This document shows positions 1-6,991 of a stretch of 10,714 nucleotides of DNA, in pieces (the stretch's first letter is position 1; every line of letters starts with the position of its first letter). The notes beneath the pieces are model-generated. The model did no database searches, was not told the DNA's origin, and was given only the letters and a program-made list of their open reading frames with translations. Source of the stretch: a virus. The position numbers and the translations under genes are program-made. The stretch lies in the UHGV virus genome UHGV-0188446; one strand, 5' to 3'.

Positions 1-13
1 GGCTTGTAATGGG

Positions 14-361
14 TTAAGTGATAACAGATGTCTGGAAATATAGGGGCAAATCCAGGCCTTCGCGAAGGATTACCTTCATCGCGATAAGCTCATTCTTGGC
101 CTTGTTTACCTTCTGTCTTGGCAGCCTGGTAATTTGAGCTAACTGACTATCAGAGATGCGATCCATCTTTTTACCGTATCCGTATGTTTTACGGCATATG
201 GCGTGGGCAACCTTACTCTGATTTTTTGTTAAATCTGCGCCGATAAGCTCTTCATACAGGGCATTTGCAAGACGGGTATAACCATCTTCAACTTCTGCCA
301 CACGACGCTCCACAGGCCGTTGTGAAGGCCTTAAATGTGTTACGGTTGCAAGATTACTCAT
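14..361 (-). CDS. O: Lambda O-like replication initiation protein, N-terminal origin-binding domain; frame stops after 115 aa (truncated, pseudogenised or short variant)
   Basis: ORF track 14..361 with ATG at 361-359 (complement). The N-terminal segment ([55 protein letters not shown]) closely resembles the lambda O N-terminus as I recall it. It lies directly downstream of cII as in lambdoid phages. Stop codon at 16-14 (complement). Confidence 0.6.
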
Positions 362-500
362 GACCTTTCTCCTTCTGCATCAGCTTCACTTTTTCCAACT
401 CAGCCCGGAATCGACCAGGCTGCTTGAAGCTGGACAGGAAGCGATCACGTAGTATGTGTTTGTGAATTTTGTCCTGGTAAGGACTGAGTTGTTTTGTCAT
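354..500 (-). CDS. Small basic hypothetical protein (48 aa) between cII and O; not in the ORF track (<60 aa)
   Basis: Hand translation of the complement from ATG at 500-498 gives [48 protein letters not shown], stop at 356-354. A strong Shine-Dalgarno AGGAG (complement of 506-510) lies 5 nt upstream. Its 3' end overlaps the O start codon, suggesting translational coupling. Confidence 0.3.
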
Positions 501-514
501 AATTACTCCTGTGG

Positions 515-590
515 ATTGATCCAGTAATTCCCTCAGAATTGCATATCAATTTGCTTAAAATCCTCGGTGGCAGCCGGGGATTTTTTCTTT
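515..590 (+). ncRNA. oop: Candidate oop-like antisense RNA ending in an intrinsic terminator, antisense to the 3' end of cII (5' end not defined)
   Basis: Plus-strand hairpin 559-582 (aatcctcgg / ccgggggatt, 9 bp with one G-U pair, loop tggcag) followed by a T-run to 590, located inside the 3' end of the minus-strand cII-like CDS. This matches the position and orientation of lambda oop. No clean promoter was identified by eye. Confidence 0.3.
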
Positions 591-829
591 GTGATTTCAT
601 CAAGCGCATACTTAAAAGCCCTGCTAATCGGACTGATGTCTGATGCCATTCCAAAAGCACACAAGACCGAAGCAATAAATCTCCAGTCCGTTCTGCTTAT
701 CTTCGATTCATGACAGCCAATCATCTTTGCCAGACCGCGCTGGGTAAGCGTTGACAGGTTGATGAGTAAATCTGTTTCTGCGCGATCAATTTCTCGCTGT
801 GTTGGCTTGCTGTAACTTGCTTGTGTCAT
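533..829 (-). CDS. cII: CII-like transcriptional activator of lysogeny establishment (divergent from lambda cII, same family)
   Basis: ORF track 533..829, 98 aa. Position between cro and O. HTH-like segment [15 protein letters not shown] and C-terminus [18 protein letters not shown] parallel the lambda CII C-terminus (..NKKRPAATERSEQIQMEF) as recalled. Confidence 0.8.
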
Positions 830-840
830 TTGTTAATTTT
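806..840 (+). promoter_or_regulatory. Candidate PRE-type CII-activated promoter with TTGC-N6-TTGC direct repeats
   Basis: TTGC at 806-809 and 816-819 separated by 6 nt (tgtaac), on the strand pointing toward cI and overlapping the cII start codon (827-829). This is the arrangement of the CII-binding site at lambda PRE. Confidence 0.45.
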
Positions 841-913
841 CCAATAGTGAATAGTTAGTTGAAAGGTATGCGTGGAAACGCATATGGCCTTAGTTGGTCA
901 GATATCTTGGGGC

Positions 914-959
914 TCGCTTTGTCAGCGACGTAGGACGAATGTCCATTGTGAAAAGAGCG
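914..959 (-). promoter_or_regulatory. Candidate nutR: boxA-like CGCTCTTTT (complement of 951-959) and P22-type boxB hairpin TCGCTGACAAAGCGA (complement of 914-928)
   Basis: On the PR transcript just after the cro stop, CGCTCTTTT matches the boxA consensus. It is followed about 22 nt later by a 5-bp stem with GACAA pentaloop, the same loop as the nutL boxB at 3851-3865. The spacer is longer than in lambda. Confidence 0.4.
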
Positions 960-966
960 GTGTTAC

Positions 967-1167
967 TTATGCAGTTGTTTTTTTGTTACTTGGGAAGGGC
1001 TTTATTTCTTCCGCATAAACGCTTCCATCAGCGTTTATAGTTAAAAAAATCTTTCGGCCTGCATGAATGGCCTTGTTAATCGCGCTTTGATATACGCCGA
1101 GATCTTTAGCCGTCTTGGTTTGCCCAAAGCGTATTGCATAATCTTTCAGGGTTATGCGTTGTTCCAT
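967..1167 (-). CDS. cro: Cro repressor
   Basis: 66-aa [69 protein letters not shown], essentially the lambda Cro sequence as recalled. AGGAGG Shine-Dalgarno (complement of 1171-1176). Divergent from cI across the OR operators. Confidence 0.95.
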
Positions 1168-1191
1168 ACAACCTCCTTAGTACAGGCAATC

Positions 1192-1262
1192 ATTATCACC
1201 GCTAGAGGTAAAATAGTCAACACGCACGGTGTTAGAAGTTTATCCCTTGCGGTGATAGATTT
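1192..1262. promoter_or_regulatory. Right operator OR1-OR2-OR3 with divergent promoters PR (toward cro) and PRM (toward cI)
   Basis: Three 17-bp lambda-type operators: OR1 1194-1210 tatcaccgctagaggta, OR2 1218-1234 caacacgcacggtgtta, OR3 1241-1257 tatcccttgcggtgata. PR -10 is GATAAT (complement of 1192-1197) and -35 is TTGACT (complement of 1215-1220) with 17-bp spacing. PRM lies on the plus strand with the cI ATG at 1268 directly downstream (leaderless arrangement as in lambda). Confidence 0.9.
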
Positions 1263-1264
1263 AA

Positions 1265-1981
<717 letters not shown>

Positions 1982-2130
1982 TGGGCAAGGTGTTCTGGTC
2001 GGCGCATAGCTGGTGAAAAAATTATTTAATGCGGTGTATTGGCTGATTGTAACCCCATGTAACATCTTGCCGTCACCATTTCGGTGGTTAGATTTTTAAT
2101 AAAAAAAACAAATGTATAGCAAGGTTTTTT

Positions 2131-2610
2131 ATGGATAAAATTAATTACCCACCCCTGTTTGAGCCAGGGTTCCATGACATGGATGAAGCTGGATTAAAAT
2201 CGTATTGTGTCGATTGCTTTCCTTCATCATCCAGGCGAGGCATGCTATACTGTAATTTTATACAGCTACTCGAATCTATTCGAGAATTATCTGCTCAATA
2301 TGGCTGTTTTACAGAAATATGGGTTGATGGTTCATACACCACGTCTAAACCAGAGCCTGATGATATTGATATTTTGTTGGTATGTGACTATAGCAATATA
2401 AACTCAATACCTGTCATGCTTCGGGGCCGCGTCGATAATTTGCTTGACCGAAACTACATCAAACAAAACTACAAAATTGATGTCCTACTACTCATGAAGA
2501 ATTTAGATGACCCTAACTATGATTATGAGTACTGGCGTAGCTACTGGCGCGGTTGGTTTGGTTTTGATCGCAGTGAAAACCCGAAAGGGTTAGTGAGGAT
2601 TTTTTTATGA
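2131..2610 (+). CDS. Hypothetical protein with minimal nucleotidyltransferase (pol-beta superfamily) signature; first gene of a two-gene cassette in the rexA/rexB position
   Basis: ORF track 2131..2610, 159 aa. Motif IWVDGSYTTSKPEPDDIDILLVCD fits the hG[GS]-x(9-13)-DhD pattern of minimal nucleotidyltransferases. AAGG about 9 nt upstream of the ATG. Stop overlaps the next gene's start (ATGA at 2607-2610). No resemblance to lambda RexA. Confidence 0.7.
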   Translation: MDKINYPPLFEPGFHDMDEAGLKSYCVDCFPSSSRRGMLYCNFIQLLESIRELSAQYGCFTEIWVDGSYTTSKPEPDDIDILLVCDYSNINSIPVMLRGRVDNLLDRNYIKQNYKIDVLLLMKNLDDPNYDYEYWRSYWRGWFGFDRSENPKGLVRIFL

Positions 2611-3539
2611 ATGATAAATCAATGTTTAAAAATTGCGATAAACGCATTGATTTCATTCAAAAAGAAGTCGATGCAATGAAGCAAAACAAAACCAGGTCCT
2701 TTGCTGACATGCTTCTTTATCGCTCCATGGATTCTCATCTGAGCGATTTGAAGGCCGAAAAATTAAAGCAAGATAGTCGGCACCCACTTATCGATTTTTT
2801 TGAGCTGCGGCTGAAAGGCTCTGAGGTTGACTTTGGCTCTATTCCTTTAGAGCTGCTTGGGGCTATTTCAACAAATCTTGCAGCGCTAATACAAAGAGCA
2901 ACACACAAAATTGCCTCAGGCAAGGACTCAAAAAAAGTTCCCTACGACGTGAAAAGCTCCTTAAACCTCAGGCTGGCTGATTTATCCCCTGGGTCTACAA
3001 AATTGGGCGTCACCTTCTCTACAGGAATAGCAGAATTAGTAGAAACAGTACCCAGCAAGGCTGTAAAAGGCATATTCGATTTGTTGTTAAGCGATGACGA
3101 CAACAACTTCATGAATCACGTCGCTGAAATTGGATACAATTCCACTGTAAGCCTTAAGAGAATCGTAGAGGAATGCGATAAACACAACTTAACATTTGAT
3201 GCAAGTTGGACCGGTCCATTTAGTAATGGCACCAAGGTGGCAACTATTGACTCCAATAAAATTAAGTACTTGGTGAGTAGACTTACATCAACCATTTCAT
3301 CCCCTCCCATTACTGAAACGGTTACAGGCGAACTGGTCGTTCTATCCAAATATGGGAAGCTGGAGCTTGATGTTGGTGGTGAACATTTAAAGGCTTCCTA
3401 TCCGATTGAAATGCTAGATTTAATACAAAAAAAACACAAGGTCGGACAGATTGTTTCTCTTTTAGTGGAGACTACTGAGATTCACAATGATCGCATAGGT
3501 CTGTACCGTAAAAACCATCTTGTTAAATCGGTTCTTTAA
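2607..3539 (+). CDS. Hypothetical 310-aa soluble protein of unknown function; second gene of the cassette, translationally coupled to the nucleotidyltransferase gene
   Basis: ORF track 2607..3539. ATG overlaps the upstream stop. No long hydrophobic segments, no Walker motifs, no resemblance to RexB seen by eye. An Rx4H string (RSMDSH, aa 39-44) is noted but is weak evidence. Followed by an intrinsic terminator. Confidence 0.7.
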   Translation: MNDKSMFKNCDKRIDFIQKEVDAMKQNKTRSFADMLLYRSMDSHLSDLKAEKLKQDSRHPLIDFFELRLKGSEVDFGSIPLELLGAISTNLAALIQRATHKIASGKDSKKVPYDVKSSLNLRLADLSPGSTKLGVTFSTGIAELVETVPSKAVKGIFDLLLSDDDNNFMNHVAEIGYNSTVSLKRIVEECDKHNLTFDASWTGPFSNGTKVATIDSNKIKYLVSRLTSTISSPPITETVTGELVVLSKYGKLELDVGGEHLKASYPIEMLDLIQKKHKVGQIVSLLVETTEIHNDRIGLYRKNHLVKSVL

Positions 3540-3546
3540 TATCTCA

Positions 3547-3572
3547 CCCGGCCACCGAGCCGGGTTTTCTTT
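3547..3572 (+). terminator. Rho-independent terminator closing the cI/cassette transcription unit
   Basis: GC-rich hairpin cccggc-caccga-gccggg (3547-3564) followed by ttttcttt (3565-3572), 8 nt after the stop of the 310-aa gene. Confidence 0.7.
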
Positions 3573-3719
3573 GCCTACCCCCCCCCAAAAAAAACACATA
3601 ACCAATTGTATTTATTTGAAAATTAATAGATACAACTCACTAAACATAGCAATTCAGATCTCTCACCTACCAAACAATGCCCCCTGCAAAAAATAAATTC
3701 ATATAAAAAACATACAGAT

Positions 3720-3782
3720 AACCATCTGCGGTGATTAATTATCTCTAGCGGTGTTGACATAAATACCACTGGCGGTGATACT
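3720..3782 (+). promoter_or_regulatory. Left operator OL3-OL2-OL1 with promoter PL (transcribing rightward in this window)
   Basis: OL3 3720-3736 aaccatctgcggtgatt, OL2 3740-3756 tatctctagcggtgttg, OL1 3764-3780 taccactggcggtgata. PL -35 TTGACA at 3754-3759 and -10 GATACT at 3777-3782 with 17-bp spacing. Near-identical to the lambda PL region as recalled. Confidence 0.92.
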
Positions 3783-3850
3783 AAACACATCAGCAGGACG
3801 CACTACTCACCAGGGCGGTGAATATACAACGATTCGAATATGAATCTACG

Positions 3851-3865
3851 GCGCTGACAAAGCGC
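3851..3865 (+). promoter_or_regulatory. nutL boxB hairpin of P22 type (GCGCUGACAAAGCGC)
   Basis: Perfect 5-bp stem gcgct/agcgc with pentaloop gacaa about 60 nt downstream of the PL start. This matches the P22 boxB as I recall it rather than lambda boxB (GCCCUGAAGAAGGGC). No clear boxA was recognised upstream. Confidence 0.6.
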
Positions 3866-3870
3866 AATAA

Positions 3871-4013
3871 CCAAAGTGAACTTTGGGGTGTGGTGAAGGG
3901 TTCATGGACGGGAATATGTCGCACGTAAAGCGGCGAGGCCTGCGGGACTATTGCCGAATTGAAGTAGGCCGAAACAGGTCGAAATGGGTCTCCCACCTAC
4001 CACACCACCAAAG
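3871..4013 (+). promoter_or_regulatory. N-leader RNA structure: long-range stem (3881-3895 with 4000-4013) plus competing local hairpin (3871-3886)
   Basis: ctttggggtgtggtg (3881-3895) is complementary to ccacaccaccaaag (4000-4013) with one bulge. ccaaag-tgaa-ctttgg (3871-3886) can form an alternative local hairpin. Lambda has an equivalent long-range leader duplex upstream of N that is processed by RNase III (recalled). The stem ends 8 nt before the N Shine-Dalgarno. Confidence 0.5.
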
Positions 4014-4030
4014 TTCATCAGGAGGTCTAT

Positions 4031-4414
4031 ATGACACGCAGAACTCAGTTCAAAGGCAATTCACGTTCTCGTCGTCGTGAGCGTTTAAAGGCAAAGGCAT
4101 TAGCTAACGGCGTGCTGGCCCGCGAAGAAGCAATAAGTTCAGAAGTATTACACCGCCCTACTCTAAGCAGAGCGCAGATTCAGGCTAAAGGTACTCACGA
4201 AACGCCTGAGCGCATAGAAGACGCTAAGCCAATTAAGTTCATGGCACAGGACGTGATCTGGCAACAGAAAGAATACAGACGCAATCTGGAGAGAGCGGCC
4301 ATTGTGTACGCGAATGAGTTTGGGCATAGGCAACCAGAAACTGGTGTATGTCTTCCAAATGTAGCTCTTTACGCGGCAGGCTACAGGAAATCAAAACAAC
4401 TGACAGCAAGGTGA
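4031..4414 (+). CDS. N: N-like transcription antitermination protein, P22 gene 24-like family, with arginine-rich N-terminal motif
   Basis: First gene downstream of PL/nutL. GGAGG Shine-Dalgarno at 4021-4025. N-terminal arginine-rich motif (NSRSRRRERLKAKALA). C-terminus ..CLPNVALYAAGYRKSKQLTAR resembles the P22 N C-terminus (..LLPGVALYAAGHRKSKQITAR) as recalled. Confidence 0.8.
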   Translation: MTRRTQFKGNSRSRRRERLKAKALANGVLAREEAISSEVLHRPTLSRAQIQAKGTHETPERIEDAKPIKFMAQDVIWQQKEYRRNLERAAIVYANEFGHRQPETGVCLPNVALYAAGYRKSKQLTAR

Positions 4415-4416
4415 CT

Positions 4417-4464
4417 TGTGTTGGTCGCCAGAAAATAAAATTAGGCAGCAAACCACTTATTTGA
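4417..4464 (+). pseudogene. Fossil 3' end of a lambda-type N gene (encodes CVGRQKIKLGSKPLI then stop), out of frame with the intact N
   Basis: Hand translation of 4417-4461 gives CVGRQKIKLGSKPLI followed by TGA. This matches the C-terminus of lambda-type N (..GRQKIK.KS.PLI) as recalled. It sits directly after the stop of the P22-type N in a different frame, so it looks like a recombination scar. Confidence 0.55.
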
Positions 4465-4472
4465 GGTGATAT

Positions 4473-4559
4473 ATGGAAGAAGAATTTGAAGAGTTCGAAG
4501 AGCATCCGCAGGATGTGATGGAACAATACCAGGACTATCCGTATGACTACGACTATTGA
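4473..4559 (+). CDS. Candidate 28-aa highly acidic micro-protein (MEEEFEEFEEHPQDVMEQYQDYPYDYDY)
   Basis: ATG at 4473 preceded by GAGGT 7 nt upstream; stop TGA at 4557-4559. Overlaps the ral start. Not in the ORF track because of size. Coding status uncertain. Confidence 0.25.
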   Translation: MEEEFEEFEEHPQDVMEQYQDYPYDYDY

Positions 4560-4743
4560 TAAGAATCAATGGTGTGGACAATTCAAACGATGCAATGGAT
4601 GCAAGCTGCAATCGGAATGCATGGTTAAGCCTGAAGAAATGTTTCCTGTAATGGAAGATGGGAAATATGTCGATAAATGGGCAATACGAACGACGGCAAT
4701 GATTGCCAGAGAACTTGGTAAACAGAATAACAAGGCTGCCTGA
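4543..4743 (+). CDS. ral: Ral, restriction alleviation protein
   Basis: 66-aa ORF MTTTIDKNQWCGQFKRCNGCKLQSECMVKPEEMFPVMEDGKYVDKWAIRTTAMIARELGKQNNKAA, matching lambda Ral as recalled. Same length as lambda ral (201 nt). Confidence 0.9.
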   Translation: MTTTIDKNQWCGQFKRCNGCKLQSECMVKPEEMFPVMEDGKYVDKWAIRTTAMIARELGKQNNKAA

Positions 4744-4789
4744 TGGTAGCCTTTATTTTTGGCATAAACAACAGAATAAACACTGCACT

Positions 4790-4817
4790 GTGTATTCATT
4801 CCAATGAGTGAATACAC
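4790..4817. other. 12-bp inverted repeat with 4-nt spacer (gtgtattcattc-caat-gagtgaatacac); strong hairpin or dimeric protein-binding site
   Basis: Arms 4790-4801 and 4806-4817 are complementary at 11 of 12 positions (the remaining pair is G-U in RNA). No adjacent T-run on the plus strand. Confidence 0.5.
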
Positions 4818-4879
4818 GGAGCAATGTCGCTCGTAACTAAACAGGAGCCGACTTGTTCTGATTATTGGAAATCTTCTTT

Positions 4880-4905
4880 GCCCTCCAATGTGAGGGCCTT
4901 TTTAT
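4880..4905 (+). terminator. Rho-independent terminator
   Basis: gccctc-caatgt-gagggc stem-loop (4880-4897) followed by ctttttat. Confidence 0.6.
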
Positions 4906-4917
4906 ATGCATACCAAT

Positions 4918-4941: not shown

Positions 4942-4966
4942 GTTATGTATAAATAAGGAGCACACC

Positions 4967-5107
4967 ATGCAATATGCCATTGCAGGGTGGCCTGTTGCTG
5001 GCTGCCCTTCCGAATCTTTACTTGAACGAATCACACGTAAATTACGTGATGGATGGAAACGCCTTATCGACATACTTAATCAGCCAGGAGTTCCCAAAAA
5101 TGGATAA
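4967..5107 (+). CDS. cIII: CIII, protector of CII (FtsH/HflB inhibitor)
   Basis: ATG at 4967 with AAGGAG 6 nt upstream. 46-aa product MQYAIAGWPVAGCPSESLLERITRKLRDGWKRLIDILNQPGVPKNG matches lambda CIII over its length except for a shorter C-terminus, as recalled. The ORF track shows a longer in-frame form from 4865, which I reject. Confidence 0.8.
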   Translation: MQYAIAGWPVAGCPSESLLERITRKLRDGWKRLIDILNQPGVPKNG

Positions 5108-6694: not shown

Positions 6695-6991
6695 ATGCCA
6701 GCGCCTCTGTATGGTGCGGATGACCCGCGCAATTGCTCCGGTAGCTCCAAGGCGGAGGTGCTGGAAAATATCAAAAACATTTTCGACACGTTTATCGATC
6801 TGCCACCAGAAACAAAAGCAGAACGGATGTACCGACGCGATATACAACTCGCGTTAAAAAATGAGAAGGACCGAACAAACGAAACATCAATCCGACCATT
6901 CCGCAAAGCCACATATACCCACTTCCCTGAATATATCGACCCGCGCCTGCGTAATTACCGCTCACGCTATGGCGCTATCAGTAATGACTGA
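6695..6991 (+). CDS. Hypothetical protein (98 aa)
   Basis: ORF track 6695..6991. AAGG upstream. Same strand and operon context. Confidence 0.5.

Follow-up and report, generated by a model that had tools for sequence, protein, structure and literature searches.

Co-inheritance of N and its own nut sites is textbook lambdoid biology. HK97, mEp234 and HK106 likewise already show lambda immunity combined with an N of H-19B/HK97 type and the nut sites that go with it, and the mEp234 GenBank record (EF120460) carries annotated lambda cI, cro and operators together with the N type described here, nutL and nutR. For H-19B, N and nutR were found to mediate antitermination both in vivo and in vitro, and the L108-containing C-terminal domain (CTD) of N contacts RNA polymerase (RNAP) (PMC4499122; PMC3526286). 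The H-19B N suppressor L108F falls in the RNAP-binding CTD (PMC4499122).

We analysed a stretch of 10,714 nt from the virus genome UHGV-0188446 (hereafter the window). Between positions 3701 and 4478, which comprise OL/PL, nutL, N and a remnant behind N, the window is 99% identical at the nucleotide level to mEp234, HK106 and HK97. With a probability of roughly 90%, this segment would be the early-left control module that is standard, and already published, for lambdoid phages of the HK97/mEp234 kind with lambda immunity. The whole 10.7-kb composite was never covered to more than 45% by a phage record or to more than 57% by a complete E. coli genome; such low coverage by any single record is normal for lambdoid mosaics. 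An Rfam search of the whole window at the gathering threshold returned the cIII thermometer only and no nut family.

The immunity core and the early-left promoter

The lambda-related features of the window are as follows.

953–2012, no strand: lambda-type immunity core with cro, OR1–3 and cI, 96.9% identical to lambda
967–1167, minus strand: cro (Cro 64/66 identical to lambda)
1268–1981, plus strand: cI (CI 233/237 identical to lambda)
3720–3736, plus strand: OL3 by lambda alignment, last base A>T
3740–3756, plus strand: OL2 by lambda alignment, G>A at position 8
3764–3780, plus strand: OL1 by lambda alignment, identical
3754–3789, plus strand: PL promoter by promoter scan, −35 TTGACA at 3754–3759 and −10 GATACT at 3777–3782

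A first-pass annotation, made from the sequence without database searches, had called cI, cro, OR and OL/PL lambda-type and the region a mosaic, and both statements hold. OL1–3 and OR1–3 match lambda except for three single-base changes, one each in OR1, OL2 and OL3; apart from these, the window has the lambda cI, cro and six operators that define imm-lambda. Alignment to lambda placed the lambda-type blocks at 953–2012 and 3546–3821, with N, nutL and nutR being non-lambda. PL reads TTGACA-17-GATACT (3754–3782), and its transcript would start at A3789, which corresponds to the pL start in the annotation of mEp234 (EF120460). From +1 onwards, the sequence ATCAGCAGGACGC was invariant in an alignment of lambda, HK97, H-19B, P22 and 21. 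PL is followed by the nutL boxB (3851–3865) and then by N (4031–4414); N, lying behind nutL, opens the PL operon.

An HK97/H-19B-type N and its RNA targets

N, its leader and the two nut sites comprise the following features.

4031–4414, plus strand: N antitermination protein, 127 aa, HK97/H-19B/933W type by protein identity, Pfam and PHROG
residues ~6–24 of N, plus strand: arginine-rich motif, P22-like by local alignment
4349–4411, plus strand: P22-type C-terminal RNAP-binding module of N, codons 107–127
3799–3865, plus strand: nutL, with boxA-like CGCACTACT, spacer hairpins and boxB; equivalents annotated in mEp234
3799–3807, plus strand: weak boxA-like element of nutL
3807–3821 and 3831–3846 (GAUUC-GAAUAU-GAAUC), plus strand: nutL spacer hairpins by RNA folding
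3851–3865, plus strand: nutL boxB, GCGCU-GACAA-AGCGC (DNA GCGCTGACAAAGCGC)
914–959, minus strand: nutR, with boxA, spacer hairpin and boxB, by alignment with lambda, HK97, H-19B and P22; equivalents annotated in mEp234
951–959, minus strand: nutR boxA, CGCUCUUUU, 8/9 to CGCUCUUUA
933–944, minus strand: nutR spacer hairpin, GGAC-AUUC-GUCC
914–928, minus strand: nutR boxB, UCGCU-GACAA-AGCGA (DNA TCGCTGACAAAGCGA), 5-bp stem and GACAA loop
3876–4018, plus strand: long-range stem of the N leader, in which 3876–3895 pairs with ~3994–4018, just before the N Shine–Dalgarno sequence
4021–4025, plus strand: N Shine–Dalgarno sequence, GGAGG

N is identical to the N proteins of HK97 and mEp234 (127/127, 100%), 98.4% identical to that of 933W and 97.6% to that of H-19B. 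It matches Pfam PF25694 (N_peptide; 57.8 bits against a cut-off of 27.9, E = 1.7e-15, residues 2–127) and phrog_271 (3.8e-38), whereas a PDB sequence search matched nothing at E up to 10. The protein is an HK97/H-19B-type antiterminator, with a predicted function that rests on its identity to H-19B and HK97. The first-pass annotation had described it as P22-type, which is right for its two ends but not for the protein as a whole. By BLASTP and tblastn, N aligns to P22 gp24 over residues 98–127 only (22/33 identical by BLASTP), and across the central ~75 residues no similarity to gp24 was detectable. The arginine-rich motifs of N and gp24 (RTQFKGNSRSRRRERLKAKAL and KSTFAGNAKTRRHERRRKLAI) gave a local alignment score of 46 that none of 2000 shuffles reached, although the VT2-Sakai motif scores higher (60) and yet pairs with a GAAA-loop boxB. 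We also considered N as gp24-type along its full length and rejected this, given that the BLASTP match is limited to residues 98–127.

Both boxB hairpins lie where the first-pass annotation had placed them, and its reading of them was borne out: the nutL boxB is identical to the P22 nutL boxB at 15/15 positions, and the matching hairpin at nutR shares with the latter the UGACAAA core, that is, the loop and the closing pair. The PL and PR transcripts of the window each contain a boxB hairpin. RNA folding of nutL gave three hairpins, the two in the spacer and boxB itself. A canonical boxA was not found in nutL, where the best candidate (CGCACUACU) agrees with CGCUCUUUA at only 5/9 positions; the same site is the putative boxA of the mEp234 record. 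Among sampled loci, the nutL-type boxB was found upstream of N in 37/37 HK97/H-19B-type and 8/8 P22-ARM-type N genes, and the nutR boxB in 22/22 HK97/H-19B-type loci with enough upstream DNA. Overall, the boxB type followed the type of arginine-rich motif in N (37/37, 8/8 and 35/36).

As a side observation, N genes are three-part mosaics, in which the RNA-binding motif tracks boxB and two alternative RNAP-binding tails assort freely.

The leader between PL and N is structured. The fold of 3788–4045 reached −86.1 kcal/mol (z = −3.65), and none of 200 shuffles folded as well; the arms of its long-range stem, CUUUGGGGUGUG and CACACCACCAAAG, occur in the lambda N leader too. In the proposed mechanism, lambda-type CI at OL1–3 would repress PL, and PL would transcribe nutL, the structured leader of ~165 nt and then N. 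The central part of N would recruit NusA and its P22-type C-terminal 21 residues would bind RNAP, after which the elongation complex may read through downstream terminators. We infer the antitermination steps because N is 97.6% identical to the experimentally studied H-19B N and the nutR boxB is identical.

A phage-21-type N end behind the N stop codon

Directly behind N, the following features were mapped.

4411–4464, plus strand: non-coding remnant of a phage-21-type N gene, its final 17 codons with the stop (VTCVGRQKIKLGSKPLI and stop codon), shifted to the −1 frame with respect to N
4410–4414, plus strand: recombination joint, where the P22-type N end (..GCA AGG T) runs into codon 83 of phage 21 N (GTG ACT..)
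4463–4559, plus strand: Shine–Dalgarno sequence GAGGTG and orf28-like gene (4473–4559; phrog_16060), the start of a phage-21/lambda-like orf28-ral block

In the −1 frame, 4417–4464 translates as CVGRQKIKLGSKPLI plus stop. The first-pass annotation had located this stretch correctly and taken it for the end of a lambda-type N; an out-of-frame N end of the lambda/21 family is indeed present, but its origin is phage 21 and not lambda. The match reaches two codons further upstream (VT, from 4411), overlapping the N stop codon at 4412–4414, and the remnant is identical to the phage 21 N C-terminus in 17/17 amino acids and 53/54 nt, as against 12/17 and 31/54 for lambda. By blastn, homology to phage 21 begins at 4411 (483/497 positions identical in 4411–4907, 97.2%) and runs on for ~800 bp beyond the joint, through orf28 and ral to 5202, whereas homology to lambda downstream of N resumes only at 4448. 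Ral itself (Pfam PF11058) is identical to lambda Ral at 66/66 residues. When the window was compared with both HK620 and phage 21, the joint mapped to 4410–4412, with 2–4 nt of microhomology on the N stop codon. Judged by sequence, the matches of the remnant, the boxB hairpins and the immunity core are not due to chance. The remnant is not annotated in the HK97, H-19B, mEp234 and VT2-Sakai records, and a literature search of limited reach found no earlier account of it or of the similarity between the H-19B and P22 boxB hairpins.

An open −1 frame spans 4348–4464 and is intact in 52 of the 56 sampled remnants, as would be expected if the remnant were expressed, either as the 21-type tail of a −1 frameshift N isoform or as part of a 38-codon ORF (4348–4464). 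The four other remnants, those of loci L074, L067 and L119 among them, have an altered end. An X XXY YYZ slippery heptamer is absent from 4349–4411, folding of the remnant RNA revealed no structure that could stimulate slippage (z = −0.64), and the ATG at 4348 has no properly spaced Shine–Dalgarno sequence. Comparing synonymous with non-synonymous changes in live tails and remnants, we found live alleles to be shared by the remnants; the variants private to remnants numbered two, too few for a test, and both are non-synonymous (G>D, S>I). In addition, the same N types work in phages that lack the remnant. We rejected a −1 frameshift at the N end on the missing heptamer and structure and the non-synonymous variants, and consider expression of the remnant in either form extremely improbable. 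A scan of 4414–4472 showed no terminator-like site.

An old joint shared by many phages

The first-pass annotation had explained the locus by one recombination across about 3 kb, in which a lambda-type phage received a P22-type N with both nut sites and kept the last 15 codons of its lambda-type N as a scar. N, nutL and nutR do all differ from lambda while cI, cro and the operators are lambda's, and an N end of the lambda/21 family does follow the N stop. The origin of the remnant and the start of phage-21 homology at 4411, upstream of where lambda homology resumes, do not fit this explanation, and neither does the distribution of the joint, which is identical in HK97, H-19B and VT2-Sakai, and which 933W shares. 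It follows two types of N, the HK97/H-19B type and the VT2-Sakai type with its different, GAAA-loop boxB, and it occurs beside lambda and non-lambda repressors; it is therefore not the scar of the event by which this N and its nut sites came to be combined with lambda immunity. The outer boundaries count against a single swap as well. The transitions between lambda and non-lambda sequence lie inside the nutR boxA (~952/953) and after the PL start (~3805–3821, PL +16 to +33), and both are separate joints in short linkers common to many phages. Moreover, nutR tracks N in 22/22 loci, 11 with lambda cI and 11 with other repressors. For these data, exchange of the immunity cassette between conserved linkers is no worse a fit than joint replacement of N and its nut sites, and a single swap that left the scar appears highly unlikely.

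The remnant was present in ~57 of 120 sampled IMG/VR loci, in front of at least nine different downstream genes, and the cassette of CTD and remnant in at least 629 of 5426 complete E. coli genomes. On the sequence comparisons made here, the remnant is a genuine recombination scar, though an old and very common one. In the history that we propose, an older 21-like N would have been replaced up to 17 codons from its end by an incoming N that carried its own stop behind a tail of P22 type; the illegitimate joint would have formed at the 2–4 nt of microhomology. The leftover runs up to the ribosome-binding site of the next gene, and this site overlaps the old N stop codon. Homologous recombination in the flanks would then have spread this old joint to many phages, regardless of immunity type or the RNA specificity of N. 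We infer the direction and order of these events from present-day mosaics.

Selection could also have kept the remnant, as a cis-acting translation-initiation region of the next gene and as a homology patch for exchange of N and accessory modules. The remnant ends in ..TTATTTGAG, with the different downstream genes starting right after it, and the Shine–Dalgarno sequence GAGGTG of the next gene overlaps its TGA stop codon; the ribosome-binding site needs only the last few bases, however. Breakpoints lie inside the remnant in L074 and near its 3′ end in L067 and L119, indicating continued recombination with live N alleles. Similarly, a 130-bp patch of CTD and remnant is 96% identical between the window and VT2-Sakai, despite different flanks on both sides. 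Independent remnants of the same N end also persist elsewhere: longer ones of ~29 codons follow sieB in L043 and L065 and an hkaQ-like gene in L071, and a copy with a 51-nt repeat-mediated deletion lies downstream of sieB in lambda and P22. On the other hand, every N type was also found without the remnant among the sampled loci, recent spread explains the conservation equally well, given that the flanking functional genes are as similar (97%), and second-order selection acting on recombination linkers is difficult to prove. The single difference from phage 21 in 54 nt is too little decay to show neutrality. Retention by selection in this specific form seems unlikely to us; the broader notion that the 21/lambda-type N 3′ end is a junction element, retained repeatedly for next-gene start signals and as a homology patch for shuffling, is slightly less so but still doubtful. 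If true, it would mean that the remnant persists through its overlap with the start signals of the next gene and as a patch for shuffling of N specificities and accessory modules.

With the remnant read as an old shared scar, the module is of little consequence beyond bookkeeping, its layout being found in annotated phages already. What is gained is an exact map of the joints and a corrected origin of the remnant, in phage 21 and an old shared event. The recurrence of N 3′-end remnants, lambda and P22 included, illustrates on a small scale that phages tolerate illegitimate joints at the ends of genes, and that such joints subsequently spread.

Comparison with known systems

Lambda has the same architecture as the window, with PL, nutL, a structured leader, N as the first gene and nutR after cro. 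Its N is unrelated in sequence, with 28 identities when aligned globally, and has the other type of C-terminal tail, and its boxB loops are GAAGA and GAAAA, in contrast to GACAA in the window. In phage 21, the codons that correspond to the remnant are read in frame and make up the live tail by which N binds RNAP; in the window, they come behind the stop codon, in the −1 frame. The remaining N and the nut sites of phage 21 are unrelated to those of the window.

P22 shares the nutL boxB, and its gp24 has a similar arginine-rich motif (F-GN---RR-ER) and C-terminal ~30 residues that are 67% identical to those of the window N. However, gp24 is 100 aa long as against 127 aa, P22 nutL has the canonical boxA CGCUCUUUA whereas that of the window is weak, the stem of the P22 nutR boxB differs, and gene 24 is followed by sieB, unlike N in the window.

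The Stx phages H-19B and 933W are closer. Their N proteins are 97.6–98.4% identical to that of the window, their nutR boxB is identical, the segment from nutL through N to the remnant is 98% identical from PL +1 to 4475, and spacer hairpins between boxA and boxB are present in both. They differ in their repressor and operators, and H-19B has the nutR boxA CGCUAUUUU where the window has CGCUCUUUU.

HK97 (NC_002167), mEp234 (EF120460) and HK106 (JQ086369) have the same N protein and boxB sequences as the window, and share with it the lambda-type cI, cro and operators and the phage-21 remnant. Relative to these three, the window has the three single-base operator differences. Between cI and Timm, it carries a PDC-M63-like pair in place of hicAB in mEp234 and gp49/gp48 in HK97, and the remnant is followed by orf28-ral in the window and by gp45 in HK97.

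Organization of the early region

The window comes from a lambdoid phage or prophage and comprises its early regulatory region. Here N denotes the antitermination protein gene (127 aa), nutL and nutR its recognition sites in the PL and PR transcripts, and the remnant the non-coding end of an older N gene.

Features of the window, in order
first feature along the plus strand: O-like gene, end only
533–829, minus strand: cII
between cII and cro: nutR
967–1167, minus strand: cro
between cro and cI: OR
1268–1981: cI
2131–3539, plus strand: two accessory genes between cI and the Timm-like terminator
3546–3565: Timm-like terminator
3720–3789: OL/PL
after OL/PL, before the N leader: nutL
3866–4030, plus strand: N leader, 165 nt
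4031–4414: N
4411–4464, 3′ of N: remnant, 54 nt
after the remnant: orf28-like gene, then ral
4954–5012: cIII thermometer (Rfam RF01804)

Coverage of the window reached at most 45% for any phage record and 57% for any complete E. coli genome, so that this combination of modules is absent from those collections, as is usual for lambdoid mosaics. The slot occupied by rexAB in lambda holds the two accessory genes, which overlap. Their products, of 159 aa (Pfam DUF6932; PADLOC candidate defence protein PDC-M63A, 1.8e-41) and 310 aa (PDC-M63B, 7.5e-45), look like a candidate two-gene anti-phage system that may be carried as a prophage exclusion cassette.

A lambda-type core joined to non-lambda N and nut sites

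All coordinates in the first-pass annotation proved correct, and its interpretation was supported in part. It had described a lambda-type immunity core, and this was borne out: 233 of 237 residues of cI and 64 of 66 of Cro are identical to lambda, and the six operators match those of lambda except for one changed base in each of OR1, OL2 and OL3. Compared with lambda, OR1 and OL2 share a G>A substitution at operator position 8 (TACCTCTaGCGGTGATA and TATCTCTaGCGGTGTTG; 1168–1267 and 3720–3780), the last base of OL3 is T rather than A, and cI carries T3A, K71N, R129K and S157Y (lambda residue first). PL reads TTGACA-17-GATACT. The initial 13 bases of its transcript, ATCAGCAGGACGC (3789–3801), are invariant among lambda, HK97, H-19B, P22 and 21, and are also found in VT2-Sakai and HK620 (homologous positions in the compared loci L002, L003, L004, L007, L008, L009 and L010). 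This invariance contrasts with the unrelated operators upstream and the unrelated nut sites downstream; ATCAGCAGGACGC is a conserved linker or a functional initial transcribed sequence.

At the right edge of the core, lambda identity stops within the nutR boxA (after CGCTCT, ∼952/953), while H-19B identity starts in the final cro codons, giving an overlap over a ∼22-nt stretch common to all. At the left edge, lambda identity fades across 3805–3821 and H-19B/933W identity starts at PL +1 (3788–3790). These are the classical immunity-cassette edges at the nutR boxA and PL, distinct from the joint at the N end.

Both boxB hairpins were found as proposed: the nutL boxB at 3851–3865, GCGCTGACAAAGCGC, is identical to that of P22 at 15 of 15 positions (P22 nutL, CGCTCTTTA-ACTTCGATGAT-GCGCTGACAAAGCGC), and the nutR hairpin on the reverse complement of 914–928, TCGCTGACAAAGCGA, has a GACAA loop on a 5-bp stem. 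The complete nutR consists of boxA CGCUCUUUU, a 22-nt spacer with a GGAC-AUUC-GUCC hairpin and boxB UCGCUGACAAAGCGA, and differs from H-19B nutR by one boxA base. A canonical boxA is absent from the nutL of the window; the putative nutL boxA annotated in mEp234 corresponds to CGCACTACT (3799–3807). Work by Neely and Friedman from 2000 reportedly found H-19B N to be independent of boxA and NusB, with spacer stem-loops drawing the flanking elements together; the hairpins at 3831–3846 and on the reverse complement of 933–944 fit this picture.

In an IMG/VR sample of 120 loci picked up through the P22-type tail of N, boxB type tracked the type of arginine-rich motif: GCGCU-GACAA-AGCGC was present upstream of 37/37 HK97/H-19B-type N genes and in 8/8 with a P22 motif, and UGGCU-GAAA-AGCCA upstream of 35/36 VT2-Sakai-type N genes. 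The nutR boxB was present in all 22 HK97/H-19B-type loci having enough upstream DNA, 11 of which adjoin a lambda-type cI and 11 other repressors.

The N leader is predicted to form a long-range stem (3876–3895 with about 3994–4018; z = −3.65) ending 3 nt 5′ of the N Shine–Dalgarno sequence. The lambda N leader, in which N translation is controlled through an RNase III site, has the same arm sequences, and P22 and phage 21 show similar forms.

N proteins as mosaics

N is identical to HK97 and mEp234 N (127/127), 98.4% identical to 933W N and 97.6% to H-19B N, and matches Pfam N_peptide over its full length. The proposed resemblance to P22 gp24 held for the C-terminus (residues 98–127, 22/33 identical), the only part aligned by BLASTP. 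The N-terminal 30 residues contain a P22-like arginine-rich motif, F-GN---RR-ER (local alignment score 46, reached by 0 of 2000 shuffles), and comparison with gp24 gave no counterpart of the central ∼75 residues. The H-19B N suppressor L108F lies in what its authors call the RNAP-binding CTD (PMC4499122), mapping RNA polymerase binding to the P22-type tail (codons 107–127; 4349–4411).

Among eight N proteins compared, the genes themselves were mosaic. HK620 N (L008, 2297–2569) combines a phage-21-type middle (ARKIALKLSGCVRADKAASLGS) with a P22-type tail, whereas VT2-Sakai N (L007, 2169–2513) has a different front end and a GAAA-loop boxB with the same tail and remnant as the window. By this comparison, N genes are three-part mosaics.

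The remnant is an old phage-21-type N end

The stretch 4417–4464 does encode CVGRQKIKLGSKPLI plus a stop in the −1 frame relative to N, and the match starts two codons earlier (VT, from 4411), overlapping the N stop. It had been read as a lambda-type fossil; an N end is present, but lambda N matches at only 12/17 aa (31/54 nt), whereas the peptide VTCVGRQKIKLGSKPLI is identical to the phage 21 N C-terminus (17/17; DNA 53/54). Homology to phage 21 runs by blastn from 4411 via orf28 and ral to 4907 (483/497 identical) and, past an indel, to 5202, while that to lambda and P22 picks up again only at 4448. The remnant derives from a phage-21-type N. Comparison of the P22-type N end in HK620 (..ACGGCGAGGTAA), the window (..ACAGCAAGGTGACTTGTGTT) and phage 21 (..ATGGGTGTGACTTGTGTT) places the crossover at 4410–4412 with 2 nt shared (GT), or 4 nt (GTGA) should the parental N have ended in TGA, the stop of some N genes. 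The joint is illegitimate, the incoming N having kept a stop codon.

This joint is old and occurs widely. HK97, H-19B and VT2-Sakai all carry the identical junction sequence, and VT2-Sakai shares only 4349–4478 with the window (96% identity) between differing flanks. About 57 of the 120 IMG/VR loci carry the joint (∼30 with HK97/H-19B-type, 26 with VT2-Sakai-type and one with HK620-type N), a P22-motif locus (L039) has it at the same position with a more diverged 5′ part, and each N type is also found in loci that lack the remnant. Directly after ..TTATTTGAG, at least nine different genes start. The 141-nt tail-plus-remnant cassette was counted in 629 of 5426 complete E. coli genomes (≥80% coverage). 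The remnant is therefore not the scar of a single event that paired N and both nut sites with lambda immunity, as had been suggested, but older than and independent of that pairing.

One locus (L074) has a breakpoint within the remnant, between VTCVGRQK and QRGKSIPAYYD plus stop, an allele also present in live N genes, and two others (L067 and L119) break near its 3′ end, indicating that it still recombines with live 21/lambda-type N alleles. In the E. coli PE15 prophage (L131, 6507–6575), the annotation covers only the last 22 N codons and the remnant; PGAP calls this N a pseudogene with a missing N-terminus, and it appears further truncated. Upstream lie a LexA-family repressor gene of cI length (714 nt) and then a hicAB pair as in mEp234.

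Three IMG/VR loci have a complete N, another module and then a longer, undeleted remnant of ∼29 codons, ..NLYYRKPRSEMGVTCVGRQKMKLGSKPLI plus stop, the module being a sieB-like gene on the opposite strand (L043, L065) or an hkaQ-like gene (L071). Lambda (L002, about 6859–6900, reverse complement) and P22 (L009, about 29560–29640, reverse complement) have the same remnant between sieB and orf28/ral, without 51 nt between the direct repeats GCAAGCCAC and GCAAACCAC (GCAA(G/A)CCAC), leaving ..CTTTACTACCGCAATCCACTATTTAAGGTG. Thus, 21-type N ends stayed behind on at least two further occasions, also in the reference phages lambda and P22.

We regard the remnant as a neutral leftover hitch-hiking with its flanks. 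No RNA structure (z = −0.64) or terminator was predicted in it, and no slippery heptamer was found in the part of N overlapping its frame. The form seen most often (M at position 9) is likewise the most frequent allele in live N genes, and the only two variants private to remnants are both non-synonymous (G>D and S>I), too few for a test. The remnant has a modest chance of being favoured as a linker. A simple reason why N replacements leave the old gene end in place is that the Shine–Dalgarno sequence of the next gene lies there, within the last bases of the remnant; in phage 21 the corresponding one overlaps the N stop codon.

Comparison with published phages

The region 3701–4478 is 99.2% identical to mEp234 and HK106 and 99.1% to HK97, and from PL +1 onward 98% identical to 933W and many Stx phages. 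HK97 aligns without a break to 491–1977 (cII, nutR, cro, cI) and to 3549–4475. GenBank EF120460, the mEp234 immunity region, stems from a study on lambda immunity specificity in wild phages, the citation of which was confirmed in the reference list of PMC11893012; the record annotates lambda-type cI, cro, OR1–3 and OL1–3 alongside the same N, as well as a boxA and a boxB for each of nutL and nutR. The mosaic of a lambda core with non-lambda N and nut sites is thus real but already on record, and we found nothing outside known lambdoid biology. Under lambda-type repression, the module is predicted to act as an N–nut antitermination system of the H-19B/HK97 type whose RNA recognition is P22-like.
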